From contig OZ244048.1 of NCBI GenBank assembly GCA_965215265.1, positions 96,001 through 160,000 of the forward strand: DNA of 64,000 nt. The letters are read 5' to 3'. Within the stretch, counting starts at the first letter, position 1; every line of letters starts with the position of its first letter. Of the stretch, positions 13,140-56,877 are shown in pieces. The DNA comes from Candidatus Poribacteria bacterium (GTDB lineage: Bacteria; Poribacteria; WGA-4E; WGA-3G). Position numbers and translations under genes: made by a program. The notes under the pieces were generated by a model. That model saw only the letters and a list, made by a program, of their open reading frames with translations. It did no database searches and was not told where the DNA came from.

Positions 13140-13372
13140 CGGTTTATTTTTTGTTCCCAATTTGTGGAGGCAGCGGAATGCTGCTTTTTATTTTTACAGA
13201 AAAAGAAAATTTGCATTTACGCTATCAATTGTGGTATCCTTAATATGTAATGGCCAAAACTTCTGTAACTGAGGTGTGCATCTGAACTGGCCTGAGTGCT
13301 TTTGTATAGAAAAAATAAGTTTAACCAATCTGTCTATTCAATTGAAGAAAAAAGAGAGGAGACATAAATATC

Positions 13373-13585
13373 ATGTCCCGAGTCTGTAGTATCTGTAGCA
13401 AACGTCCGATGACAGGACATCAGATTAGCAAATCGCTTCGCCATACAAAACGGCGGTGGCTTCCAAATCTCCAGCGTGTGCGTGTGCAAACGGAAGCGGG
13501 CCCGCGGCGAATTCGTGTTTGCACCAAGTGTTTACGAAGCGGTAGAGTCGCCAAAGTCGTTTCAAGAATGCCCAATCCGATATAA
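13373..13585 (+). CDS. rpmB: 50S ribosomal protein L28 (Cys-containing form)
   Basis: MSRVCSICSK...HTKRRWLPNLQ...RVCTKCLRSG; AGGAG RBS. Confidence 0.97.
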   Translation: MSRVCSICSKRPMTGHQISKSLRHTKRRWLPNLQRVRVQTEAGPRRIRVCTKCLRSGRVAKVVSRMPNPI

Positions 13586-18362: not shown

Positions 18363-18718
18363 TCGCCTTTCTTCACAAGACTTGCAATTCGTGTTAAGGG
18401 GATGGCACGTCTTGTAAACCGGGATAATAATTGAAGTTTGAGAACAGTCCATTTGCACCGGCTCAAGCATGGTAGTGCTGAGCGATACAAAAATCAGAAG
18501 TAGACACAACGTTTACAATACACTCAAAATGCCTTCTCTAACACCTAACCCCCGGGGGTTATTGGTGCTCAGAAGATACGGACATTCGCAAAAAATACGC
18601 CCCCCTGAAGTGCCCAATATACACAGGGTGTGTCTCGAACATGATGAGATATAACATTCTCCGCATCAGACACCGAACACAACAGCATACCATGAGTTCG
18701 TTAATACCCGCTCCTTTT

Positions 18719-19759
18719 TCACGGGAGTTTGTGCTTTTTCACCTCTCCCCATACCGTAATTAACCGGTGCTGTCGTGGCGATATAGGCAGCGCAGATGTC
18801 GAATCAAAACAATCTGCATTTGTGTTAGATCCGACGCGCGTGAGTTGCTTTGATATACCATCGACTAAGGTGACTGTGAAGAGTTGTCTCTCTTCGCCGA
18901 CGCGTCGTTGGTAAACCAGAGCATCGCCCGATGGAACCCACGTTGGCATCGAAACATCGGCACCATCTGCTTCAACAATCCGCTGAATCCCAATTCCGTC
19001 GCGATTCATAAGATAGATAGCTTTTTCATCAAACAGATTGTGATCCTTTTTCAATAGGCGGGGCACAGGGATTGCCTTCACATCTACGCCAGTGAAGGCA
19101 ATTTTTGTACTATCTGGCGACCACGCCGGATCAAATATCCAAGGGAAACCGGGTAGCATCAGCTTCTTTCCAACATGGGTTTTCGGGTTCACAAATTGAA
19201 TTCGGGTTTCCCCAAGCACTATCCCTTTAAATATATCATTCTGGGGAATGAACAGATCAGAAGAAACAAAAGCAATCTCGGAGTTGTCAGGGGCCCACGC
19301 TGGAGTTATGCCACTTGCAACGCGCGTTTCGACGGTGCCATTCATGGAACCTATGTAAATATCCATCTCACCGCATCGTGGATTAACGCGATAGTAGGCA
19401 ATCTGATTTCCATTGGGGGCCCACGTTGGACGTTGTCTACGCACAGTTTTTATGAAAAGTTTCCGCAGGTTTCCCCCATCGGCATCCATCAGGTAGAGAT
19501 CCGTAGTTTTGTTTCGATCAGAGACGAACAGAATGTGTTCACCTGTCGGGGACCAGACGGGATCGAAATCCGCCGCACGGTGACGGGTCAAGTTGACTTG
19601 TCCTATCCCATCAGGATTCATGACATAGATTTCAGGATTGCCATCCCGAGTGGAGGTGAACAGAATTTTGGGTGTGTTGGGAGCTTTTGCAAAAATAGAA
19701 CAGATATTCCTGCACAATAGTATGAGGTTGAGAAGAAAAAAGCAGCGCGACGGCTTCAT
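18719..19759 (-). CDS. Secreted TolB-like PD40-repeat protein with C-terminal 'LITVWGEVK' motif
   Basis: Signal peptide; FTSTRDGNPEIYVMNPDG, PVWSPTG, PTWAPNG, PAWSPD repeats. Confidence 0.85.
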   Translation of the reverse strand: MKPSRCFFLLNLILLCRNICSIFAKAPNTPKILFTSTRDGNPEIYVMNPDGIGQVNLTRHRAADFDPVWSPTGEHILFVSDRNKTTDLYLMDADGGNLRKLFIKTVRRQRPTWAPNGNQIAYYRVNPRCGEMDIYIGSMNGTVETRVASGITPAWAPDNSEIAFVSSDLFIPQNDIFKGIVLGETRIQFVNPKTHVGKKLMLPGFPWIFDPAWSPDSTKIAFTGVDVKAIPVPRLLKKDHNLFDEKAIYLMNRDGIGIQRIVEADGADVSMPTWVPSGDALVYQRRVGEERQLFTVTLVDGISKQLTRVGSNTNADCFDSTSALPISPRQHRLITVWGEVKKHKLP

Positions 19760-19806
19760 TATAAATTTCCCCTTTTTGTATCTTTTAGCACGTTAACTTC
19801 TGATAT

Positions 19807-19962
19807 TTTTCGTATATCTCCGTACCGTCAACACCTATACTATTGATGGTTCGTGTGTACATCTCGTCGGAGGTTCCTTATGCATAGCATAAGATGGCTC
19901 AGACGAGATTTGTAAAGGCTTTAATATTGCAGCTGCCTTTATGGGGCTGCAGTAGACGAAAA
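19807..19962 (-). repeat. Two-arm palindromic intergenic repeat element (copy A), with an extra partial arm at 19773-19797
   Basis: Reverse complement aligns along its length with 21847-22009; inner inverted repeat ATCTCGTCGGAG (19861-19872) / CTCAGACGAGAT (19898-19909). Confidence 0.9.
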
Positions 19963-20042: not shown

Positions 20043-20124
20043 ATAATAACACAAAAAAAGAGTTTTGTCAAACTTTAGATGATTTACAATTCTGGTTGAC
20101 ATTGAATGCGTGAAGTGTTAAAAT
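20043..20124. promoter_or_regulatory. Divergent sigma70 promoters (minus: TolB-like gene; plus: tmk-holB)
   Basis: Minus: TTGACA (20071-20066) - 17 nt - TATTAT (20048-20043). Plus: TTGACA (20096-20101) - 17 nt - TAAAAT (20119-20124) with TGn extension. Confidence 0.7.
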
Positions 20125-20811: not shown

Positions 20812-21804
20812 ATGAAAGGTACAATCATTGGGCATCAGCAAATTGTTGAACAACTCCGGTGTACCGTTGCATCCGGTAGGATTGCTGGCGCGTATCTCTT
20901 TGTCGGACCGCCGGGCGTTGGAAAAGAGACGGTGGCGACTTATTTCGCACGTTTAATCTTTTGCCACCGAAATAACGAGGCCGATGCCGTTTGCGAATTT
21001 TCCAGTAGCAGTTCGCAGAATTTACAAGATTGCCTCGCTTGTCGAAAGGTGGCATCCGGCAATCACCCAGATCTTCGATTTATTCGGCCAACCGGAAACC
21101 AGTTGAAGATAGCCCAAATTCGGGAATTACAAAAACAGATTATCTATGAGCCCCTTGAGGCTAGTAGGAAGGTTTACATTTTGACAGACGCGGAGCGGAT
21201 GAATATAGAGGCAGAAAACTGCCTACTCAAGACCTTAGAAGAACCGCCTGCCTCATCCGTTTTAATCCTACTCACTTCAAACCTAGAATCCTTGCTGCCG
21301 ACGACCCGCTCACGATGTCAGATTCTCCAATTTCATCCGATGCAGACTGAAGCATTGGCACAAGTGTTGATGAGGAGATTTGCTGTTGAGGGACCACGGG
21401 CCACCTCAATCGCGATTGCAGCGAAGGGAGCTATCGGAAAAGCACTCACACAACTTGAAAAAGGGCAGGTACGCACGCACGAAGTACCGGAGATCCTGAA
21501 GGAAACAGACCTGTTAGCCGCTTTTAGATTCGCTGAACAATTCAAGAATGAACCAGAAAATTTAGCCGAACTGATTACGTGGTATCGCGACCTGTTATTT
21601 TTACATCAGGGTGCGCCGAAGGAGCTCATAACCCACCTGCAGTCGATTGAGGAACTCAGCACGCTTCTGCCCCGATATTCGCGATTGCGCATCCAGCAAG
21701 CTATCCAGACTGTGTTTTACACCAAGGCACTTATTGAGAACACCAACACAAACGCAACATTGGCCTTGGAGGTCATGTGTCTAAAATTATTAAAACAGCC
21801 TTGA
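20812..21804 (+). CDS. holB: DNA polymerase III subunit delta'
   Basis: AYLFVGPPGVGK, HPDL, AENCLLKTLEEPP, LLPTTRSRCQ; classical tmk-holB synteny. Confidence 0.93.
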   Translation: MKGTIIGHQQIVEQLRCTVASGRIAGAYLFVGPPGVGKETVATYFARLIFCHRNNEADAVCEFSSSSSQNLQDCLACRKVASGNHPDLRFIRPTGNQLKIAQIRELQKQIIYEPLEASRKVYILTDAERMNIEAENCLLKTLEEPPASSVLILLTSNLESLLPTTRSRCQILQFHPMQTEALAQVLMRRFAVEGPRATSIAIAAKGAIGKALTQLEKGQVRTHEVPEILKETDLLAAFRFAEQFKNEPENLAELITWYRDLLFLHQGAPKELITHLQSIEELSTLLPRYSRLRIQQAIQTVFYTKALIENTNTNATLALEVMCLKLLKQP

Positions 21805-21817
21805 CACCTTAACTCAC

Positions 21818-21846
21818 TTGACAAATAGCATTTTTTATGTTAAAAT
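21818..21846 (+). promoter_or_regulatory. Sigma70 promoter upstream of the repeat array and metG
   Basis: TTGACA (21818-21823) - 17 nt - TAAAAT (21841-21846) with TGn extension. Confidence 0.7.
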
Positions 21847-22283
21847 TTTTGTCTACTGCAGCCCCTACAAAGGCAGCTGCAATATTTACCCGTTTGCAAA
21901 TCTCGTCTGAGCCATTTTATACTATGCCGCCTAAACAGAGAGAGACTCCGACGAGATTTACACACGAGTACTCACGACATAAACGTTGACGGTACGGAGA
22001 TATACGAAATACGCTTTTTTGTCTACTGCAGCCCCATGAAAGTTGCTGTAATGTTCAATCCACTATAAATCTCGCCAGAGGGTTCTGATGTTTAGATTTT
22101 TAAAGACATAACCTAAGGAATCTCCGACGAGATTTACACACGAGTACTCACGACATAAACGTTGACGGTACGGAGATATACGAAATACGAGATTTACACA
22201 CGAACTCTCAAAGCAGAGGCGTTGATGGTACCGAGATATACGAAAAAGCAGAGGCGTTGATGGTACCGAGATATACGAAAAAG
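21847..22283 (+). repeat. Tandem array of the palindromic repeat element: two full copies plus two truncated right arms
   Basis: Full copies ~21847-22009 and ~22017-22185; identical 68-bp blocks at 21946-22013 and 22122-22189; truncated arm 22187-22247; exact 35-bp tandem repeat 22213-22247 / 22248-22282. Confidence 0.95.
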
Positions 22284-22291
22284 GAAAACCG

Positions 22292-24196
22292 ATGGACGCA
22301 TTTTACGTCACTACCCCCATCTACTACGTCAACGGCGAACCGCATGCCGGACACGCCTATACTACGATAGCTGCTGATGTCTTAGCCCGTTACCATCGCC
22401 TCAAAGGCAATGCTGTCTGCTTCCTCACAGGTGTTGATGAGCACGGGGCAAATATTCAGAAAGCCGCAGAGCAGGAGGGGCTTGAACCGCAAGCATATTG
22501 CGATAAGATGGCACCCACGTTTGAAAAACTCTGGAAGCAGTTGAATATTTCCAATGACATTTTTATGCGGACAACAAGCCAGATGCACAAACGCGGTGTC
22601 TCTAAATTCATCAACGCTCTCTATGAAACTGGCGATATCTATAAGGATAAATATCAAGGGTACTACTGTCGGCCCTGCGAACAGTTTTTTACTGAGAAGG
22701 AGCTGAATGCTGAGAAAGTCTGTCTGATTCATAAATTGCCGTTAGAATGGGTGGAGGAAGAGAATTATTTTTTCGCACTCTCCAAATATCAAAAGCAATT
22801 AATAGACCATTTCCACGCGAATCCGGATTTTATTTATCCGCCAAGTCGACGCAACGAACTATTGAGTGTTTTGGAATCTGGATTAGAAGATACCTGCATC
22901 TCTCGTGCCTCGGTTTCGTGGGGCATTCCGTTGCCGTTCGCTCCGGAATATATCTCTTATGTCTGGATAGAAGCATTGAGCAACTATATGACTGCCCTCG
23001 GCTATGAAACAGAGAGTGAGCAGTATCGTACTTTTTGGCCTGCTGATGTTCATATGATGGCGAAGGACATCATCCGCTTTCACGCGCTCCTCTGGCCAGC
23101 GATGCTGATGGCTGTGAAACTGCCGCTCCCGAAGCATATCGTCGCTCATGGATGGTTAACAAAAGATGGCGAGGCACTCAGTAAAACGCGAGGCATCGTG
23201 ATTGATATGGAGATGGACATCAAAAAATATGGGTTAGATGCCTTCCGTTACTATCTCTTGCGAGAGTTTAGCTTCGGGAACGATGGTGATTACCGCCCGG
23301 GCCGCTTACACGCCCGTTACAATGCAGATCTTGCTAACGACCTTGGTAATCTGCTCAATAGAGTGCTCGGACTCGTCAATAAAAATTTCCAACACGTTCC
23401 GGAGCCGACTGACCCGGGTGAATTTGACAGTGAAATCAGAGCGATGGCGCACGGAACAGTGGAAAACCTTGACGTTTTAATCCGAGAATTTGCTTTCGAT
23501 AGAGCCTTGGAGACAATCTGGGAGTTTGTCCGACGTATCAACCGATATATTCAACAGACACAAGTTTGGACACTCGCTAAACCTGATACAAAATCGAGAA
23601 TGGGGACTATCCTATACAATAGTCTTGAGGCACTACGTATTATCTCGGTGCTCATTTCGCCATTTATGCCAGATACCGCGCAGCGGATGCGACGACAACT
23701 GGGCTTAGATGCCTCCTTGGAATCTAACACAGACAGCCTTCAATCTTGTCAAGAATGGGGTGGATTACCATCAGGGTTAATTGTCAGTAGAGGCGAACCG
23801 ATTTTTCCGCGCGTTGATACAAAGCAGCCCAAGCAAAAAAAGGTATCGGAACAGAGCACGGGGGTTGTCTCTCAGGACCTTATCACATTTTCCGATTTCC
23901 AAAAACTGGATTTACGCGCCGCCAAGGTGATTGCTGCCGAACGCATTGAAGGTGCCGACAAACTCTTGAAATTACAAGTCGATTTGGGTTCCGTTTCTCG
24001 GCAGATAGTCGCTGGCATCGCCGAACATTATACACCTGAAACTGTAATTGGAAAACAGGTGATTGTAGTGGCGAATTTAGAACCTGCGACGATTCGTAGC
24101 GTTAAATCAGAGGGCATGCTGCTCGCAGCGAGTGGTGATTCAGTCGTTTTGGCAACGCTTGAAACAGAGGTCTCCCCCGGTTCGCAAATTCGTTAA
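22292..24196 (+). CDS. metG: Methionine--tRNA ligase with C-terminal tRNA-binding domain
   Basis: FYVTTPIYYVNGEPHAGHAYT, TGVDEHG, YC..CE, KDIIRFHA, DLANDLGNLLNR, C-terminal Trbp (RQIVAGIA, SEGMLLAA). Confidence 0.97.
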   Translation: MDAFYVTTPIYYVNGEPHAGHAYTTIAADVLARYHRLKGNAVCFLTGVDEHGANIQKAAEQEGLEPQAYCDKMAPTFEKLWKQLNISNDIFMRTTSQMHKRGVSKFINALYETGDIYKDKYQGYYCRPCEQFFTEKELNAEKVCLIHKLPLEWVEEENYFFALSKYQKQLIDHFHANPDFIYPPSRRNELLSVLESGLEDTCISRASVSWGIPLPFAPEYISYVWIEALSNYMTALGYETESEQYRTFWPADVHMMAKDIIRFHALLWPAMLMAVKLPLPKHIVAHGWLTKDGEALSKTRGIVIDMEMDIKKYGLDAFRYYLLREFSFGNDGDYRPGRLHARYNADLANDLGNLLNRVLGLVNKNFQHVPEPTDPGEFDSEIRAMAHGTVENLDVLIREFAFDRALETIWEFVRRINRYIQQTQVWTLAKPDTKSRMGTILYNSLEALRIISVLISPFMPDTAQRMRRQLGLDASLESNTDSLQSCQEWGGLPSGLIVSRGEPIFPRVDTKQPKQKKVSEQSTGVVSQDLITFSDFQKLDLRAAKVIAAERIEGADKLLKLQVDLGSVSRQIVAGIAEHYTPETVIGKQVIVVANLEPATIRSVKSEGMLLAASGDSVVLATLETEVSPGSQIR

Positions 24197-27392: not shown

Positions 27393-27459
27393 TTTTGTCT
27401 ATTTCAGCCCCATCAAGGGTTATGTATTGTTAAATTCGATGTACATCTCGTCGGAGGTT
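27393..27459 (+). repeat. Single arm of the palindromic repeat family
   Basis: 36 bp (27400-27435) identical to 33388-33423; 20 bp (27440-27459) identical to 19856-19875. Confidence 0.9.
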
Positions 27460-27624
27460 AGGTATTCTTTGTCTGTCCATGAGACAAGATAACCTTATAC
27501 CTGCCATCTATAGATCGGAGGTTAACTCGGTATAGTTTTTTTTAATCAAAACCTAATCCAATTAAGACTAAAATTGCTAAATGTACTGAGCTTATGATAG
27601 AATAGTGGTATATAGGAGGACGCG

Positions 27625-31595: not shown

Positions 31596-31671
31596 TTTGT
31601 ATATTTTAGCACGTTACCGTCGATGTTTTGATAAAACATTTACAAAACTCGTCGGAGCCTCTCTCTGTTTT
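31596..31671 (+). repeat. Diverged single arm of the palindromic repeat family
   Basis: TTTGTATATTTTAGCACG...CTCGTCGGAGCCTCTCTCTGTTT matches the reverse complement of 21933-21955 and resembles the partial arm at 19773. Confidence 0.75.
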
Positions 31672-33377: not shown

Positions 33378-33473
33378 TTTTTTCGTATATTTCAGCCCCA
33401 TCAAGGGTTATGTATTGTTAAATCCGAGGTTTTTACATTGCAGCCGCCTTGTTACGGGCTCCTGTAGACGAAA
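33378..33473. repeat. Internally deleted two-arm copy of the palindromic repeat family
   Basis: Left end TTTCGTATATTTCAGCCCCATCAA; right end reverse complement TTTCGTCTACAGGAGCCCGTAACAAGGCGGCTGCAAT, matching the left arm of 21847. Fills almost the whole intergenic space. Confidence 0.85.
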
Positions 33474-46324: not shown

Positions 46325-49300
46325 TTACTCGTCGGTTAGCTGCGTGGGCAAACTCTCAATCATTTTCGCCGATTCTACGCTCACATAGACGATGCGCTCT
46401 ATCGCTGTGATAAGGTCCCGCGGATGCTCAAACCAGCCGTTCGGATCGTTGACAATGCCGCTGTACTTGTCTTGCTTGATTTTGTAACGGTTGATAAACC
46501 ATTCCAAGGGCGTTCTGTCGTTGACCACGTAACGATGCGCTTCTTCTGGAATTCCAGATAATTGGACGTGTTCATTGATGATGAGTGTTGTTTTCGTTTC
46601 TTTATCGGCAAAACGCATGGCTCGCTTCCCTAATAGAAAATGCGCCGGTTTTTCCTCCCAAAATAAGATAGGTGTCCGTGTCCGGGGTTCAACTGTTAGA
46701 TTTGGGTATCGTTCGCCTGTCTCGTAATTGAGGTGGAGTTCGGCAAGACGGTTTCCTGCTTTAGCAAAAGTGCGGAATTCAGGTGCGAATGGGATATGTG
46801 GTAGCATCTTGGACAAATCGTTGGCGAATTGTTCTCTATAACTGGGTGCGTGGAGGAGCCCGTAAACGTAGTCGAAGATGTCGTCTTTGCTGATAGAGTC
46901 ATCTTGATAGTGTTCTTGGAAATTACGCAGTGCCGTGTCCGAGATATTGTCAATCCGTTCCGGTGTGCCGCCGATACTAGGAAAAGCGTTTGCTGCGTCG
47001 GATGTATCCATAGGCTTCAGATATCGATAGCGTGGGAAACACTGTGCACCGGCTTCACAAAAGTTAAGATCAGTCATCGTATCTGTCATAAGGGCAGAAA
47101 ATGGCTTTTTAGAACTGATGTTGGGGACACATATCACTCGGTTTTCGCTGGAACTGTCTGGGAAAATTCGATCTACTTGGAATTTCTCTTGTGCAAAGAG
47201 ATAGTCTGCGTAACAATACGTGGCAATAAAGGGTCGGTACAAAGTTTTCCGGATGTAACCCTTATCAAATTCTGTCCCTTTCTTTCGTTTCAATTGGTCC
47301 CTCAGTCCTCGAGACCACTTAATATTCGTAAGATTGTTGTGATGGGATACCACCTCATCTACCGTGAGTTCAGGATTCGCCTCAAGTTCAGAAAGTGCGG
47401 CGAGGTAGTCTTGCGTCATCCGTCTTGCATTTTCAGCGCATGCCTCGCGAGAAAAATTGTAGAGGTATGCGTCTCTGTTTGTTGCCAATCCCAAAGAGTA
47501 CAGCTGAAATATAGCATTATCCGCTTTGCCTGCTTTTGCCTGCTTTGTGCCTAGCGGATAAAACTTCGCAAATGCCTCGCTGCGTTGTCCAATCCAATCG
47601 TGGTGCTCATCGGGGGTGATTGTTTGCCAATCGTTGAACCCTTTTATAGAGACTGCCTTGCGGAGTGCCTCCAACTTCTCCTCACGTGTGAGGGAGTCGC
47701 CGATGTCATGGTAGTGGATGTGGCAGCCGTCGTGTATAGCGTTCGGATTTTTGATTAAAATGGTAATAGCGACAGGGGACTGAGTTGCATTCCCGAAAAC
47801 GCCTTCCCCTTCGGAGCGGAGCCCGCGTGCATCACCTCGGAGGTTCAGGACATAGATAGAACTGAACTCCTCTGCCCAACATGCGCGAATTGCCGAATCG
47901 ACCCTTCCAGTAATCCAACTACCAGGGGTGACAAATGCAACGACACCTTGTTCTTGGATCCTATCGGATGCCCAACGGATTGCCATCTTGTAAGTATCGT
48001 AAAGGTAACTTACTAGTGTTGTCGTTGAGCGAGCCACGTACGTGTTTTTTATTCGTTCTTCAAGTGCAGGATATTCCACATTCGGATTGTCATCCGAGGC
48101 GTTCTTCTGTCCTGCGGACCAGGGTGGATTGCCGACGATAACCTGGATTGAGAGTTGCTGTTGCCGTTCGGCGCGTTCGTTGTTGTCAGGCAGCCACTCC
48201 TTCGGCAAAAGCGTAGGAGCTTCCTGCTTGTTCAGGTTGAATGTATCGGTAAGGACGATGCCCTTAAAGGGTTCATAGTTGCTATCTCCGCCACGTCTTC
48301 CGCGGAAGGCTTCCTCAATATTGACGGCGGCGATGTAGTAGGCGAGGAGGACAATTTCGTTTGCGTGGAGTTCCTCCCGGAACTTCCGGTCCAAGTCATC
48401 AGGGCGAATCAGTTCGGATTGCAGCAGTTGAACCAGAAAGGTGCCGGTACCGGTGAATGGATCCAGCACCTGTACACCTTCATCGCTGAGGCTGCATCCA
48501 AACTCGTCTTGTAATATATCATTCACACTGTGTAAGATGAAGTCTACCAACGCAATTGGGGTATAGGCAATGCCGAGCCGGTCTGCCTCTTTTTTCAACC
48601 CCTTTTTGAAAAATTGTTCGTATAGCTCAGATAGGACCTGTTGCCGGCCTGCGCTGTTGTCTATACCGCGGACACGCATCCGCACGCTTTCGTAGAAGTC
48701 TTCTAAATTTCTCGTTTCGTTCTCCAGCCCGAATTCAGCGAAGTCCTGCTGTAGGTTATCTAACGCAGAAGCCACCGGGTTGCGTGAGGAAAAATCGTAA
48801 TCCTCGAAGAGTGCCGCGAAAACGGGCTGGGTTAAGATGTGCTGTGCCATCATATCTATGGCGTTGCTCCGCGTGATTGTGTCGTTTATTGACGCTTTCA
48901 ATTCTGTATGGAAGGCATCGAACCATTCACGAAGTGCCGTATTTGCAGGATTCTCCAATAGGTTTTCTATACGCCCAACAAGCCTGCCGAAAATAACGGC
49001 GACATCCTTTGCCCAATTTTCCCAGTATTTCTTATCGCCGCATTTCTCTACAATTTTTGGGAGGATTGCACTGATAGGAATATCCATCGGCATTAGCAGC
49101 TGCTGCACATCTGCGTCGGCACCCGGCACCCCGGCTCCAGCCCCACTCTCTCCACTTTTGCCGAAGATGAGTCTGTCAGGGAGTCTTTTGTTCAGATCTA
49201 TGCTATTGATTTCAGCGTCCAATCTATCGTCGTGCGAACGGAGGGCACGCAGCACGCCCCAGACGTTGGCGAATCGTTGATTGTCATCTAGCGCGGCGGC

Positions 49301-51157
49301 GGCGTCCTGACTTGCTGGGATAGCCACGGGCAGCACGATGTAACCGAACTCCTTATCCTTTGCTTTCCTCATCACGCGCCCCACTGCCTGAACGATATCA
49401 ATCTGCGAGTTTCGCGGGGTGATAAAGATTACCGCGTCGAGCGCCGGCACATCAATGCCTTCGGAGAGGCAGCGCACGTTGGAGAGTATGCGGCAAGTGC
49501 CCTCTTCACTCCCTTTTAACCAATCCAGGCACGCTTTCCGGTTCAAGGCGTGCTCCGTTCCATCGACGTGCTGCGTTTCGCACCGGAAATTTTCTAGGTA
49601 TTGTTCTTCTGGTAAGTGTTCAACCGCACGCTCAATAACTGGATTCCAGTTTCTAACCAGTGCCTTTGACGCTCTAATGGTGTCGGTAAAGGCGATGACG
49701 CGTTTTAGCGGTTTGATTGAGTCTTCGCCGAGCGCCTTGTTCTCTGGGTTTTGTAGCGCACGCCAGCAGCCCACAATCTTTGTGGCATCGTTAACGTTCA
49801 GCTCATTGCTGACGGGGCCAGTCTCACCCCTCAAAGCAGCGTTGACACCCCCTTCCGCTACACCGAGCACAACGACCTTGTAGTCGGCGAGCTCTCCTAT
49901 CTCAACCGCTTTGGAAAACGGGAGATGGTAGAATTCGCGTCCGTATTTCTCGTCGTCGTCCATAGAGAACACGTCTCGTTCATAGTTTGCGATTTTGGTT
50001 TTCACCGCTTCGGTGTAAATCTTTGGGGTGGCTGTCATATAGAGCCGTTTGTTAGCACGGATGCGAGTCTCATCGTGTACCAGAACGAAGGGGGAAAGCT
50101 GCCCGTCTGGCTGCTCTACACCGGTTGTTCTGTGTGCCTCGTCACAGAAGATAATATCAAACGGCGGTGCCCCGCCGGCTCCCTGGGCTTGCTCTACAAG
50201 TGGGAGTGAGTGATAGGTGCAGAAGACAACGCTCATTTTATCCGTATCAAGGGTTTTCAAGGTGTGTGAGATGGCTGAAGGGTTTGTGGTGACAGGGAGT
50301 TTGAGTTCCAGAATGGACGCATCTTCGGCTGTATTTCCGGCACGGGTATCAGAGCAGATGCCGATGTAGCTATGCGGGATGCCGCGCTGTTCTGACCATT
50401 CGCGCATCACTTGTGAAAGGAGCCCGATAGACGGCACCAGATAGAGGACCCTCCCGCCGATGCCGGCCAGCTGCTCTGCGATTCGGAGGGCGGTGAAGGT
50501 TTTGCCCGTGCCGCACGCCATAATCAACTTGCCCCGGGCGGCTTGTTTGAAACCTTCTATCACTTTCTCTAATGCCGCTTTTTGATGCGGCTTCAGGTTG
50601 AACCGTCTCTGTTGGTAGGTGAGCTGCTCGGGTGCCTCCAGGCGCAAGTCTGGCCACTTGAAGTGACTGCTTTCAAGTTCTCGGAAGTTCAGGATGCGGA
50701 GCTTGTCCTTTATCGGTTCTATGGTGCGGAGGGCGTTCTTTCCCCACCCTCCCCCGGTATTGACAATAATCCGTGAAGTGAAGAGCTCGCTTGCCGAGGC
50801 GGCGAGAAAAGAATCTATGTGTGGTTTTGAGAGTCGAGTGGTTTCGGCATAACACTTACATTGGATAGCACAATAGCCGCCCTCCCGTTGCTTTGCGACG
50901 ATGTCTATGCCGATATCGTTTCTGTCGAAGTCTGTGCGGCGGGCTGCCCAGTCTTTCCAGCGCCAGACTTCAGAGAACTGTTGCTTATAGTCCGGGTCCT
51001 CGCTGAAGTATGTGAGCATCAGGCGTTCGAAAAGTTCGCCTTTGTGAGACTCAGATTGAGCGGCTTCGCGGATGTAGTCTAAGACATTTTGGAAGTCAGG
51101 ATTGTTTTGGCTATTAGCACTGTGGGGGGTAAAGTAGGATTGCGTCAGTTGTGTCAT
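46325..51157 (-). CDS. Type ISP restriction-modification enzyme (Mrr-like nuclease + SF2 helicase + N6-adenine MTase + TRD; LlaGI/LlaBIII-like)
   Basis: FERL...GIDIV...IQCKCY nuclease; MACGTGKT, DEAHRT, MTATP, LSEGIDVP, QAVGRVMR helicase; DPFTGTGTF and GNPPW MTase; 1610 aa; AGGAG RBS. Confidence 0.93.
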   Translation of the reverse strand: MTQLTQSYFTPHSANSQNNPDFQNVLDYIREAAQSESHKGELFERLMLTYFSEDPDYKQQFSEVWRWKDWAARRTDFDRNDIGIDIVAKQREGGYCAIQCKCYAETTRLSKPHIDSFLAASASELFTSRIIVNTGGGWGKNALRTIEPIKDKLRILNFRELESSHFKWPDLRLEAPEQLTYQQRRFNLKPHQKAALEKVIEGFKQAARGKLIMACGTGKTFTALRIAEQLAGIGGRVLYLVPSIGLLSQVMREWSEQRGIPHSYIGICSDTRAGNTAEDASILELKLPVTTNPSAISHTLKTLDTDKMSVVFCTYHSLPLVEQAQGAGGAPPFDIIFCDEAHRTTGVEQPDGQLSPFVLVHDETRIRANKRLYMTATPKIYTEAVKTKIANYERDVFSMDDDEKYGREFYHLPFSKAVEIGELADYKVVVLGVAEGGVNAALRGETGPVSNELNVNDATKIVGCWRALQNPENKALGEDSIKPLKRVIAFTDTIRASKALVRNWNPVIERAVEHLPEEQYLENFRCETQHVDGTEHALNRKACLDWLKGSEEGTCRILSNVRCLSEGIDVPALDAVIFITPRNSQIDIVQAVGRVMRKAKDKEFGYIVLPVAIPASQDAAAALDDNQRFANVWGVLRALRSHDDRLDAEINSIDLNKRLPDRLIFGKSGESGAGAGVPGADADVQQLLMPMDIPISAILPKIVEKCGDKKYWENWAKDVAVIFGRLVGRIENLLENPANTALREWFDAFHTELKASINDTITRSNAIDMMAQHILTQPVFAALFEDYDFSSRNPVASALDNLQQDFAEFGLENETRNLEDFYESVRMRVRGIDNSAGRQQVLSELYEQFFKKGLKKEADRLGIAYTPIALVDFILHSVNDILQDEFGCSLSDEGVQVLDPFTGTGTFLVQLLQSELIRPDDLDRKFREELHANEIVLLAYYIAAVNIEEAFRGRRGGDSNYEPFKGIVLTDTFNLNKQEAPTLLPKEWLPDNNERAERQQQLSIQVIVGNPPWSAGQKNASDDNPNVEYPALEERIKNTYVARSTTTLVSYLYDTYKMAIRWASDRIQEQGVVAFVTPGSWITGRVDSAIRACWAEEFSSIYVLNLRGDARGLRSEGEGVFGNATQSPVAITILIKNPNAIHDGCHIHYHDIGDSLTREEKLEALRKAVSIKGFNDWQTITPDEHHDWIGQRSEAFAKFYPLGTKQAKAGKADNAIFQLYSLGLATNRDAYLYNFSREACAENARRMTQDYLAALSELEANPELTVDEVVSHHNNLTNIKWSRGLRDQLKRKKGTEFDKGYIRKTLYRPFIATYCYADYLFAQEKFQVDRIFPDSSSENRVICVPNISSKKPFSALMTDTMTDLNFCEAGAQCFPRYRYLKPMDTSDAANAFPSIGGTPERIDNISDTALRNFQEHYQDDSISKDDIFDYVYGLLHAPSYREQFANDLSKMLPHIPFAPEFRTFAKAGNRLAELHLNYETGERYPNLTVEPRTRTPILFWEEKPAHFLLGKRAMRFADKETKTTLIINEHVQLSGIPEEAHRYVVNDRTPLEWFINRYKIKQDKYSGIVNDPNGWFEHPRDLITAIERIVYVSVESAKMIESLPTQLTDE

Positions 51158-53380: not shown

Positions 53381-53448
53381 TTCGCAGCAGCCTTTATTGT
53401 GCACTTGTAGACGAAAAAATGCCTTTATTGGGCTGCAGTAGACGAGAG
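53381..53448 (-). repeat. Two tandem truncated arms of the palindromic repeat family
   Basis: Reverse complement reads TCGTCTACTGCAGCCCAATAAAGGC-ATTTT-TTCGTCTACAAGTGCACAATAAAGGCTGCTGC, matching the left arm of 21847 and 19962. Confidence 0.85.
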
Positions 53449-53452
53449 AACG

Positions 53453-53640
53453 TTACTTGCGAATCAACATCTTGGGTGTAGCGGTGAAGTCCCCAGCGGT
53501 GAGCGTGTAAGTAGACCTCGCTCGCCACCGGCTCCCCGACGGCGTTCTGGCCATCCCAATACGCCGCACGTGCCCGAGTCCGGTAAAACTCTGCCTGCTG
53601 ATGCCCGAACGCTAGTGTGCGGACGAGCGTGCCGTGTGCA
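53453..53640 (-). pseudogene. Orphan frameshifted C-terminal FlgD-Ig / T9SS type-A-sorting-like domain remnant
   Basis: Hand translation: HGTLVRTLAFGHQQAEFYRTRARAAYWDGQNAVGEPVASEVY-(frameshift)-YTLTAGDFTATPKMLIRK*. Not in the ORF track. Confidence 0.85.
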
Positions 53641-53698
53641 AACAGGGGACGATTCCGCCGTGTGCGAGTAGGCGTTGGGTTGTCTCAGCGGCACCACT

Positions 53699-54622
53699 TT
53701 ATTCGGTGAAGTGCTGCATGAACGTCTCAAGGTTCTCAGCGGTGGCGGCGGCTTGGCATAACTGCTTGAGGTGCTCGATGTCTTGGACGGCTTCCAGAGA
53801 CGGTTTTAAGAGGTGCACCGCCCCAGGATGGAAGCGCGTCTCAAGGATATCTAAGATAGCCTCGATGTGTCCTTTAGCGCGTCCTTGTTCTATACCTTGT
53901 TCTATACCTTGCTCTATACCTTGCTCTATACCTTGCGCGATAAATTCATCGCGTAACAGTTGGAAATACTTCGATTCTCGCATCAGTCCCTCCGGTATCA
54001 GACGTTTGAAAAGCGACGCGTCATGCACAATACCCCCGAAAACCGACAGCGCACACAGTAAATCCCCTTGCGCCCCCTCATCCAAATCCGTACCTGTCGT
54101 CGCGGTTATACATCTTTGAAGCCAAGCCGCTGACTCCAAACCTTCAGGCGGTTTCATCAACGGCGTGAGCGGCAACAGCCCAGGCGCAGCCAACGCCAAA
54201 ATAGATTCACCTGCTACTTCTATCAGACGGATAACCTTATACCGCAACCGATAGGCGTAGCCACACAGACTATATTCATACACACCCTCATCCCTTCGCC
54301 CCGCTGACGGATGGAAATACAGCACATTCGAATACACCGGCAGCTGGTATTCCCCGAGCAGATAGCCGTGATACGCTGCGTTTCGTGCCCACATCGGTTT
54401 GGGTGTGCTATCTCGCACCTGCAACTCTATGTGTAGGATAGCCTCTTCGTTATCAATACGGATACGCTTGGTGCTATCGACACGCTGCCCGATAACCACC
54501 TGTTGTTCCGTGTCAAGGTTTTCAAGCACCTGAACATTGTCCACCCCGAGTATAAACCGTGAGATGTCGTCGGCATGCTCCGTCAACAGCTCTTTTGCCA
54601 TATTATCATAGTCTTGTGCCAT
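53699..54622 (-). CDS. Rpn/YhgA-like PD-(D/E)XK nuclease (transposase_31-related)
   Basis: YDNMAKELL, RVDS, ILHIELQ, LPVYSNVLY, LLPLTPLM, MRES..Q, (IEQG)x4, ILETRF. Confidence 0.88.
   Translation of the reverse strand: MAQDYDNMAKELLTEHADDISRFILGVDNVQVLENLDTEQQVVIGQRVDSTKRIRIDNEEAILHIELQVRDSTPKPMWARNAAYHGYLLGEYQLPVYSNVLYFHPSAGRRDEGVYEYSLCGYAYRLRYKVIRLIEVAGESILALAAPGLLPLTPLMKPPEGLESAAWLQRCITATTGTDLDEGAQGDLLCALSVFGGIVHDASLFKRLIPEGLMRESKYFQLLRDEFIAQGIEQGIEQGIEQGIEQGRAKGHIEAILDILETRFHPGAVHLLKPSLEAVQDIEHLKQLCQAAATAENLETFMQHFTE
53883..53936. repeat. 12-bp coding tandem repeat (IEQG x4)
   Basis: CCTTG(T/C)TCTATA x4 plus a partial unit. Confidence 0.95.
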
Positions 54623-54658: not shown

Positions 54659-54661
54659 GTA

Positions 54662-54693
54662 TTTGTATATTCGTATATTTCAGCCCATCAACC
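54662..54693 (+). repeat. Outer-end fragment(s) of the palindromic repeat family
   Basis: TTTGTATA-TTCGTATATTTCAGCCCATCAAC versus TTCGTATATTTCAGCCCCATCAA at 33382. Confidence 0.75.
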
Positions 54694-54842
54694 GCTGATG
54701 TGGCAGGATAGGTATTCTTTCTCTGTCCTCAAGGACAGTGGCAGGATAGGTATTCTGCCACTTTTCTCACAAACAAACCTAACAATATCAGACACAGACG
54801 ACTCTCAAAAAAAATGGTGGTAAGCGAGGTCAATAATTTGTC

Positions 54843-54871: not shown

Positions 54872-54990
54872 ATGATTAACAGCATCTTTTTATTGTATCT
54901 TGTGTGGTTCGGCACGAGAATTCATGTTTTCAATCTAATCGATTACATCGTAGATTGAAATTGCAGTGTACTCATACGCAGGAGGAAATG

Positions 54991-56877
54991 ATGAAACGGA
55001 GAATAAAAATATTAGGGTTGGTGGTGGCGCTGCTGATACTTTGTGCTGCCCCGCATACGTTTGCACAAAAAACATGGCAGAAGATTAGTGAATCAAAGTG
55101 GAATGCTGATTTCTCAGATATCTTTTTTGTAGATGGGCAGCACGGGTGGATTGTCGGGAGCCATTCAACGATTCTTCACTCCGCCGATGGTGGGCAATCC
55201 TGGGAGCAGCAACCGAGTCAACCGTTACCTTTTGATATTGAATTGAAAAAGGTTCGGTTTATCGATCCGAAGACAGGCTGGGCTGTCGGAGACAATGGGA
55301 CGGTCCTGAAAACAACTGATGGCGGCAAGACGTGGATGAAAAAGAGTACGGACACACGCACCGCTTTGTTAGCAGTCTCTTTTGCCGATGCGCAGCATGG
55401 ATGGGCGAGTGGCGATGGTGGTCTGATCATTAGTACGACAAATGGCGGCACAACGTGGACAAAACAAACTATCGAGACGAATAACACCGTAGAAGGCATT
55501 CATTTTATCAATCCACAAGTCGGCTGGGCAGCCGGTGGTGGCGGAACGCTCCTCTATACAACGGACGGTGGACAAACCTGGGAATTCCAGACGAGCGCGA
55601 CGGTGAATACATTGGATGCCATCTTTATGCTGAATGAGAACGCGGGTTGGGCAGTCGGCTCTGGCGGTGCTGTCGTAGCAACAGCAGATGGGTCGAAGTG
55701 GGAGGTACAGGAAAGCAGTGTTCCGAACTCTAACGGCATGCCTGAACCGATTTGGGATGTCCATTTTGCTGATGAAATGTTAGGGCTCGCAGCTGCGGAG
55801 TTCGGTGTCATTTTGCGGACGACAGACGGGGGCAAAACGTGGAAGCCCCATGAACCGAGACCCGTCGCAGCACGGTTAACAGGCGTTCACATGATGAACA
55901 ACCAGGAGGCCTGGATAGTTGGGAATGCTTCAACGATTTTACACAGTAAGGATGGCGGAGAGACGTGGGATGTGATTTCTAACTTGAGTAAGTTGCGGGC
56001 GGGTACCTTTTATAATGATCAGCTCGGGTGGGCAGTTGGTTTGTCTGGGACTGTTTTACATACGAACGATGGTGGCGAAACATGGAAGCCCCAAAATAGC
56101 GGAAACGTCTTTGAACTTTTCGGAGTGGGGTTTGTCAGTGAAAGCAAAGGCTACATCGTCGGGAGTAATGCTGCACTGGTGGAAACAGAAGACAGCGGGC
56201 AAACTTGGGCAGGCGTAAGCGACCCGCGCGATGAGGGACACGGCACCGTCAAACGGATTGTTTTTGAAGGACCGATGAGCTGGCGCGGGGCGATGGGCTC
56301 TTATGGACTCAGTTTCGGTACGCCGACACACGGTTGGGCTGTCGGTGAGACCGGCAGGATTATGCACACTAGTGATGGCGGGCAGACCTGGGTCAGCCAA
56401 GAATGTGACCCGATGATGACTGGGGCAGGATTTAATAATCTGTACGGTGTACATTTCATTGATGGAAAAACCGGATGGATAGTGGGGGATGCAGGAACCA
56501 TCGCGAAAACAAACGATGGCGGAGAGACGTGGGCGACAATGCTAAAGGGTGCTGCCTTAAAAGATGTTTATGCCGTTAACCCGATGCTCGCCTGGATTGC
56601 CGGAGAACAAGGCACTATCATGGCTACCGTTGATGGCGGTACCGAGTGGATTGAACAGACAGTTCCAACGGCAGCGAACCTCAACGGTATCCTCTTTATT
56701 AATGAAAAAGAGGGCTGGGCTGTTGGTGAAAATGGCACAATTCTCCACACCACGGATAGCGGTGTAACCTGGGTAACGCAACCCTCACCAACAACGAATC
56801 ATCTTTATGATATCATTCAAACACCAAACGGTCAGCTATGGGCTATTGGGGATTCAACCACAATTCTGCGTTACTAA
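54991..56877 (+). CDS. Secreted YCF48/BNR (Asp-box) repeat double beta-propeller
   Basis: Signal peptide; about 13 repeats of 'F.D...GW.VG..G.IL.T.DGG.TW'; GGAGG RBS. Confidence 0.92.
   Translation: MKRRIKILGLVVALLILCAAPHTFAQKTWQKISESKWNADFSDIFFVDGQHGWIVGSHSTILHSADGGQSWEQQPSQPLPFDIELKKVRFIDPKTGWAVGDNGTVLKTTDGGKTWMKKSTDTRTALLAVSFADAQHGWASGDGGLIISTTNGGTTWTKQTIETNNTVEGIHFINPQVGWAAGGGGTLLYTTDGGQTWEFQTSATVNTLDAIFMLNENAGWAVGSGGAVVATADGSKWEVQESSVPNSNGMPEPIWDVHFADEMLGLAAAEFGVILRTTDGGKTWKPHEPRPVAARLTGVHMMNNQEAWIVGNASTILHSKDGGETWDVISNLSKLRAGTFYNDQLGWAVGLSGTVLHTNDGGETWKPQNSGNVFELFGVGFVSESKGYIVGSNAALVETEDSGQTWAGVSDPRDEGHGTVKRIVFEGPMSWRGAMGSYGLSFGTPTHGWAVGETGRIMHTSDGGQTWVSQECDPMMTGAGFNNLYGVHFIDGKTGWIVGDAGTIAKTNDGGETWATMLKGAALKDVYAVNPMLAWIAGEQGTIMATVDGGTEWIEQTVPTAANLNGILFINEKEGWAVGENGTILHTTDSGVTWVTQPSPTTNHLYDIIQTPNGQLWAIGDSTTILRY

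Follow-up and report, generated by a model that had tools for sequence, protein, structure and literature searches.

Tip-retaining stacks of a small palindromic repeat family in a Poribacteria genome, one of them upstream of metG

Bacterial MITEs such as ERIC, Correia, RUP and Nezha are described as intergenic elements of <200 bp with inverted ends around a non-coding core, which fold into stem-loops, occur in internally deleted copies and lie 5' of genes (PMC3184786). REPINs and the BIMEs of Escherichia coli are, in the accounts used here, inverted doublet units whose singlets are remnants; they are amplified in tandem and form clusters, which arise when a unit inserts within or beside one already resident (PMC3116915, PMC3333891). 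Insertion beside resident copies and end-anchored deletions are known behaviours (PMC3116915, PMC9330008), and IS110-type modules, which insert without duplications, are described as stacking at REPs (PMC12288879). Here we analyze a 64,000-nt stretch of a Candidatus Poribacteria contig (OZ244048.1, positions 96,001 to 160,000; hereafter the window), in which a dispersed repeat family with each of these MITE and REPIN/BIME likenesses forms stacks, one of them directly in front of metG.

The repeat family and the array before metG

The array between a strong promoter and metG was resolved by sequence inspection and repeat finders into two full elements, a 59-bp arm and a 35-bp tip, designated U1 to U4 (Table 1), all of which share the terminal GAGATATACGAAA. 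U3 repeats at a 60-bp period with 81% identity to the arm of U2, and U4 at a 35-bp period with 100% identity to the U3 tip. The U3/U4 junction falls within an internal A/T run, and on its 3' side U4 runs into a purine tract and then metG, whose ATG is at 22292. U1 and U2 are identical over 68 bp (21946-22013 and 22122-22189), that is, over the 64-bp arm and 4 bases past the tip. This identity ends at the inner arm boundary, beyond which the A arms are 72% alike and the loops unrelated. As the 68-bp identity stands beside a dissimilar A arm and loop, an extra step is needed, either gene conversion or a crossover within the arm.

Much of this had been described in an earlier sequence-only reading, and its anatomy is borne out: the four-unit stack behind a strong promoter, the common end on all four units, the identical right arms of U1 and U2 next to different left arms and loops, and U3 and U4 as a different allele. 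The further stacks that it listed are also real (19774-19797 beside the 19808 copy, 53382-53416 beside 53419-53445, and 54660-54701).

Table 1. Positions in the window of the repeat elements and of the features next to them
Feature	Positions	Strand	Basis or context
DNA polymerase III delta' gene holB	20812..21804	+	NCBIfam TIGR00678 above cut-off
Sigma-70-like promoter: TTGACA, 17 nt, TAAAAT, extended -10 TG	21818..21846	+	11/12 consensus matches
U1, full element with A arm 21847-21911, loop of 34 nt and B arm 21946-22009, the latter homologous to A in inverted orientation	21847..22009	+	
U2, full element: A arm 72% to that of U1, ~40-nt unrelated loop, B arm as in U1 plus 4 flank bases	22017..22185	+	
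U3, B-type arm lacking the 5 innermost bases, 59 bp	22187..22245	+	arm comparison, junction sequence
U4, U3 tip repeated exactly in tandem (35 bp)	22246..22280	+	repeat finder, arm comparison
Methionine-tRNA ligase gene metG	22292..24196	+	NCBIfam NF008900, 824 bits vs cut-off 598
31596-type remnant stacked outboard of the 19808 tip	19774..19805	-	28/33 vs 21/33 to the 19808 tip
Full element of the family, within the leader of ORF 18719-19759	19808..19961	-	repeat finder, model, fold z -4.6
Lone full arm with no partner, then second repeat type	27393..27457	.	sequence, model
Lone full B-position arm and loop remnant, no A arm	31596..31658	-	model
Element minus both inner stems and loop (symmetric loss)	33381..33473	-	arm comparison, model
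Two stacked A-type tips	53382..53445	-	model E 0.016 and 0.065
Truncated arm and 8-bp tip remnant	54660..54701	-	abuts -35 box of ORF 53699-54622

With the stack taken out, the sequences flanking U1 on the left and U4 on the right give a normal promoter, then a short spacer, the purine tract and the metG ATG. Because the element starts straight after the -10 box, the predicted +1 would lie inside the U1 tip, and the metG leader would then be ~440 nt long, a length conditional on that predicted start site. Farther upstream, back-to-back 11/12 promoters at 20043-20124 face tmk-holB and the gene behind the 19808 element.

A feature overlooked in the earlier reading is the homology between the A and B arms, which are inverted copies of a single ~64-bp unit. 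Within an element the two arms are 55-63% identical, and their pair scores of 45-52 exceed the shuffled maxima of 32-38 (500 shuffles each; all three pairs tested lie above every shuffle). Each arm consists of a tip on the outside (TTYGTMTAY), a middle of variable sequence and, on the inside, a motif that closes with the short palindrome CTC-N4-GAG; the loops, of 24-40 nt, are variable and partly related between copies. T- or A-runs flank all tips, of which 7/17 read CGTC or TGTC and 10/17 CGTA or TGTA.

The arm pattern is matched six times in the window, compared with 0.00 across 100 shuffles. A model built from sequence alone finds at least 15 arms at E<0.1 in seven intergenic sites of the window, 10 of them being its training sequences; the arms of the array, which score E 2e-19 to 4e-8, are in that training set. 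The 8-bp remnant at 54662 and the 19774 remnant (E 1.3) were found by motif scan and junction analysis and stand outside the 15. Both arms are present in four copies, namely U1, U2, 19808-19961 and 33381-33473, and this last copy occupies most of a 111-bp gap separating two genes. U1 and the 19808 copy each fold into three stems (z -4.7 and -4.6, respectively), and the U2 fold is no better than shuffles (z -0.6). No Pfam domain was found in the ORFs overlapping elements, and the family is apparently, and probably, unnamed.

Other repeats are present as well. A second short repeat type, at 27450-27510 and 54700-54769, is joined to the inner side of two arms and is tandemly duplicated at 54700/54738. 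The largest direct-repeat families in the window are YCF48/BNR beta-propeller repeats at 54904-56877 (+), which are ordinary coding repeats.

Tip retention and junctions

Truncation is polarized within the window. Nine truncated arms keep the outer tip (U3, U4, 19774, 33381, 33473, 53416, 53445, 54670 and 54662), and no inner-only fragment is found in the window, where a scan with the inner motif recovers only its 8 full training arms. The corresponding outer-motif scan yields five non-training tips above the highest of 10 null windows (14.1), one of which, at 18491, is doubtful. This possible degenerate tip (18451-18510) lies just before the probable recJ start, scores 15.2 against the null maximum of 14.1 with a model E of 3, and has a 9-base flank in common with the 19774 remnant.

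The fixed end is the tip of either arm. B tips are stacked at metG, 19774 and 54662, and A tips at 53382-53445; as the stack at 53381-53448 is made of left-type (A) tips, stacking is not limited to a single element end. Of the polarized, one-ended addition proposed earlier, the polarity therefore stands and the single end does not. Contrary to tip retention, the 27393 and 31596 copies have lost the whole partner arm, including its tip. Loss of inner parts may follow from the inner stem being the best-paired part and hence deletion-prone, as the 33381-33473 copy suggests.

To which allele do the stacked remnants belong? U3 is nearer to the 19808 arm (48/56) than to U2 (45/56), the 19774 remnant is nearer to 31596 (28/33) than to the neighboring 19808 tip (21/33), and the outboard remnant at 53445 is nearer to the 19960 arm (24/25) than to its neighbor (19/25). 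U4, on the other hand, equals the U3 tip at 33/33 positions, and the 8-bp remnant at 54662 agrees with a distant allele at 8/8 and with its neighbor at 7/8. For three of the five outboard remnants, a copy elsewhere in the window is a better match than the adjacent unit. This points to repeated arrival of different alleles, a claim of the sequence-only reading that these comparisons support.

The same reading had set this against simple slippage, and here the junctions argue otherwise. Microhomology of 2-3 nt (estimated lengths) is seen at four of the five junctions: at three, a T-run beside the tip overlies a T-run inside the arm, and one lies on three bases common to the U2 flank and the inner motif. 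Junction 53445/53415 has no microhomology. A random break in a full arm would be followed by TT in 4-17% of cases. The four microhomology junctions, together with U4 as an exact tandem duplicate, indicate that slippage-type trimming plays a part, so that addition and slippage both contributed.

Origin of the stacks and the metG leader

With moderate confidence, we favor the reading that the stack consists of copies of a non-autonomous, MITE- or REP-dimer-like element, inserted beside their own tips and trimmed or duplicated by microhomology repair. From the observed repeat family, inverted arms, allele mosaic, tip retention and microhomologies, we infer mobility, a partner enzyme and an order of events. 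The units would belong to a dispersed DNA element of ~150-170 bp, with two inverted homologous ~64-bp arms around a variable loop of 25-40 nt. First, an enzyme encoded elsewhere in the genome would recognize the arms and put copies into intergenic A/T-run sites, at metG into a formerly compact promoter-to-RBS gap; since the A/T-run tip of a resident copy would itself be such a site, different alleles would build up side by side. Second, in a step to which the junctions lend support, breaks or stalled ends at a tip would anneal to a 2-3 nt match inside the neighboring arm. Repair would then either delete the inner part of the outboard copy (U2/U3, 19808/19774 and probably 54670/54662) or duplicate the tip (U3/U4), leaving a stack in which each unit retains its tip and the long leader is a tolerated by-product. 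As new copies would land beside old ones and then be trimmed, the site looks more like a hot spot for selfish DNA than like a control element. Against this reading, arm likeness of 55-63% is low for a working terminal inverted repeat.

The four two-armed copies have no target-site duplication of common length or offset, with 64 end definitions tried per copy. The repeats at their ends are 7 bp in U2 (inside the 68-bp repeat), 5 bp with shifted ends in the 19808 copy and 3-4 bp in U1, with none in the 33381 copy. Nor did any of the mechanisms named in the sequence-only reading, one-ended or rolling-circle transposition, site-specific recombination or retro-insertion, gain support, as searches of the 81 window ORFs (41 long and 40 short) gave no domain of a reverse transcriptase, HUH enzyme, recombinase or transposase. 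Among other genes of the window are that for ribosomal protein L28 at 13346-13582 (+), which is below the 90-aa ORF cut-off, and that for a Type ISP restriction-modification enzyme of 1610 aa at 46325-51157 (-).

Searches beyond the window were likewise negative. A genome-collection scan with a variable-gap arm pattern gave, among the matches listed (seven loci in unrelated taxa, all chance matches), no arm by profile search (best E 0.24), and the array has no blastn match at E<=1 among plasmids and phages. Translated arm frames gave nothing usable, with one match at E 5e-4 that has no aligned stretch. An origin of the arms from coding sequence, considered since the tip variants look synonymous, was rejected: the best of six frames is 44% synonymous (P=0.16 versus column shuffles), as judged from 8 arms free of indels, with 9/17 tips left out.

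An HUH nuclease of the RAYT or TnpA-REP kind, nicking single-stranded DNA at the foot of an arm hairpin and adding units by rolling-circle-like strand transfer, was the main idea of the earlier reading. It would make polarized stacks and arm mosaics direct products of one enzyme, and we regard it as possible but unlikely. The A arms read CGTC or TGTC followed by an imperfect hairpin of 8-9 bp and stand in head-to-head heterodimers, like the CGTC REPs described in PMC3733652. However, over 10 arms the hairpin register holds in no more than 64% of cells, no change is double-sided, 30 of 500 shuffles reach the pairing percentage and 497 of 500 the covariation score, and a 5' GTAG foot is absent. 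Diversification plus tandem addition is predicted by the E. coli BIME model, yet the same account has tandem copies at one locus well conserved (PMC3333891), whereas the window units differ. Absence of a target duplication accords with such an enzyme, as does the lower folding energy of the strand opposite to transcription in all four two-armed copies. There is, however, no HUH gene in the 81 window ORFs, and no transposase association is listed for CGTC repeats in the portion of PMC3733652 consulted.

Could the stacks have formed with no element-specific enzyme, from one old insertion expanded by host slippage and unequal recombination and partly overwritten by gene conversion from dispersed copies? 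The exact 35-bp duplicate, the 8-bp near-duplicate and the microhomology at four of five junctions are what such a history would leave, the sharp stop of U1/U2 identity at the inner arm boundary is as a conversion tract could produce, and duplication also occurs away from tips, at 54700/54738. It does not readily explain why three of the five remnants are unlike the allele of their neighbor and match a distant locus, nor why every junction, at four separate sites, has one side within a few bases of a tip. We consider this history unlikely as a full account.

There is a small chance that the family represents a class, not described before, of mobile palindromes in Poribacteria that target their own copies, with a tip-cutting enzyme, no target duplication, arm shuffling, and leaders that grow by ordered tip-anchored addition. 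Its landing sites, in this equally doubtful extension, would be resident tips and A/T runs by promoters, stop codons and ribosome-binding sites. One candidate enzyme would come from a Pfam-less, transposase-labelled family with a member at 53699-54622 and tips facing it on both sides.

This ORF, on the minus strand, has no Pfam, NCBIfam or PDB assignment and belongs to a large Pfam-less family (1267 matches among 7998 candidates). In the Atlas, DUF4351 occurs in 16% of its nearest cluster and another cluster is named 'Transposase family protein'. Its protein may resemble Rpn/YhgA-like nucleases. Its own 11/12 promoter ends 7 nt before the ATG at 54622, so the transcript is probably leaderless. 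The ORF contains a 12-bp coding repeat, and arm tips face it from both sides. Among the 120 homologues listed, the two that carry an organism name give Candidatus Poribacteria, as does the nearest Atlas cluster, and an arm-like peptide was not seen by eye in the five with an N-terminal extension past the promoter, a weak test in one frame. Next to it, at 53454-53690 (-), is a frameshifted gene remnant like a C-terminal sorting or FlgD-Ig domain, only a lead, from the Atlas at 0.88, and an A-type tip lies ~10 nt past the stop codon of this remnant.

That the stack is a selected regulatory leader of metG, be it an attenuator, a riboswitch-like RNA or a portable promoter/RBS module, appears improbable. 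The A-to-B direction is that of the downstream gene at 6/7 sites (one-sided P 0.06; 7/7 by tip triplet alone) and B tips are 14-18 nt upstream of an ATG at 3/5 sites, although in gaps this small some of that is automatic. The strong folds of U1 and the 19808 copy would suit an RNA function, yet the whole leader has a z of only -2.0, the complement of the transcribed strand equals or exceeds it in folding in 4/4 copies, and a double change is found in 1/43 consensus pairs. RNA-level selection on the transcribed strand was accordingly not seen, either by covariation or by comparing strand folds. A 9/12 promoter-like site is present inside U1, but the plus strand has no terminator, and the same element precedes unrelated genes. 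In the window there is no Rfam match at gathering score, T-box and SAM riboswitch included, and the only two weak matches (E 0.46 and 3.9) are unrelated and outside the array.

Predicted occlusion of the RBS was uninformative, the A-rich tract being open and only a GG pair closed for both start sites tried. U3 and U4 also contain out-of-frame ATGs at 22225 and 22260 (+), each behind a GAGG tract. The latter opens a 36-codon frame overlapping the metG start, which might lower translation.

An artefact of assembly, in which strain variants collapsed to give at least U3/U4, is very improbable: the 68-bp and 35-bp repeats are exact and the source may be a metagenome assembly, but the repeats are shorter than one read and the same pattern, with diverged units, recurs at three other loci. 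Retro-insertion with 5' truncation, primed at a fixed site, fits worst and is scarcely credible. The units do have a 3' end in common, with A-runs of 2-6 nt after it, but both element ends carry this tip and A-run, stacks grow at both, and neither a reverse transcriptase in the 81 ORFs nor a target duplication was found.

Comparison with described elements

The window elements are MITE- or REP-dimer-like, yet each family tried departs from them in a defining feature. With MITEs they share terminal inverted repeats around a non-coding core and dispersed intergenic copies under ~200 bp. They differ in the lack of a consistent target-site duplication, and, relative to the elements described in PMC3184786, in having arms of ~64 bp that are only 55-63% alike, no matching transposase found in the window, and mixed-allele, tip-retaining stacks.

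Likeness to CGTC REP heterodimers, as these are described in PMC3733652, extends to the CGTC or TGTC read by 7/17 tips at the outer foot, the short A-arm hairpin starting with A/T pairs, the head-to-head heterodimeric arrangement, and a structured spacer with complementary ends. The B arms, in contrast, start with CGTA or TGTA, mostly with no hairpin, a CCA tail is lacking, and the homology spans 64 bp, well beyond a REP (PMC3733652). A stem of 8-9 bp with a loop of 4-5 nt is not maintained (64% of 78 cells paired, no double-sided change); the hairpin is present in the A arms and missing from most B arms, and T-rich or TTC sequence follows the A-arm stems where the 3-nt CCA tail would be expected. 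Clusters are given as rare for CGTC repeats in that source, but occur at 4/7 sites in the window. REPINs and BIMEs (PMC3116915, PMC3333891) differ from the window arms, which lack the 5' GTAG foot, in a window that has no RAYT gene and whose tandem units are dissimilar and truncated. The sole occurrences of GTAG are on the other strand of the A arms, 3' to the hairpin.

Two further families were considered and rejected. The 14-bp inverted repeat of ISApl4, of the IS1016 group in the IS1595 family (PMC12561309), matches four arms at 12/14 positions, where 0.27 matches would be expected, a comparison chosen after the motif had been seen. A preference for A/T-rich targets is also shared. The match, however, begins 16 nt into the arm and faces outward, as an IS end reversed, with homology continuing 46 nt further, and no direct repeats of the 7-9 bp given in PMC12561309 flank that position. 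Integron attC sites, in the account of PMC2727003, are likewise palindromes of imperfect pairing and variable sequence that lie between one gene's stop codon and the start of the next, in most cases in the direction of the genes. The window copies, at 148-163 bp, exceed the stated 57-142 nt in 3/4 cases, have housekeeping neighbors and no integrase in the window. They also lack the AAC/GTT boundary boxes (PMC2727003), with no GTTRRRY in 4/4 copies and a single internal RYYYAAC in 1/4.

In the accessible literature we found no account of a repeat like this, either from Poribacteria or from the leader of metG; genome-wide MITE catalogues, such as that of PMC11602168, could hold the family. If the favored reading of insertion and repair is true, this is a further small selfish palindrome family, in the phylum Poribacteria, and insertion with microhomology repair can make an essential gene's leader about thirty times longer and yet not be lethal; the nested alleles would date insertions and type strains. 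The significance would be greater if the partner enzyme were of a new kind or if fixed-orientation insertion were aimed at gene boundaries. Taken against the described systems, the family is probably a variant of known small palindromic elements, its polarized stacking partly explained by ordinary microhomology repair.
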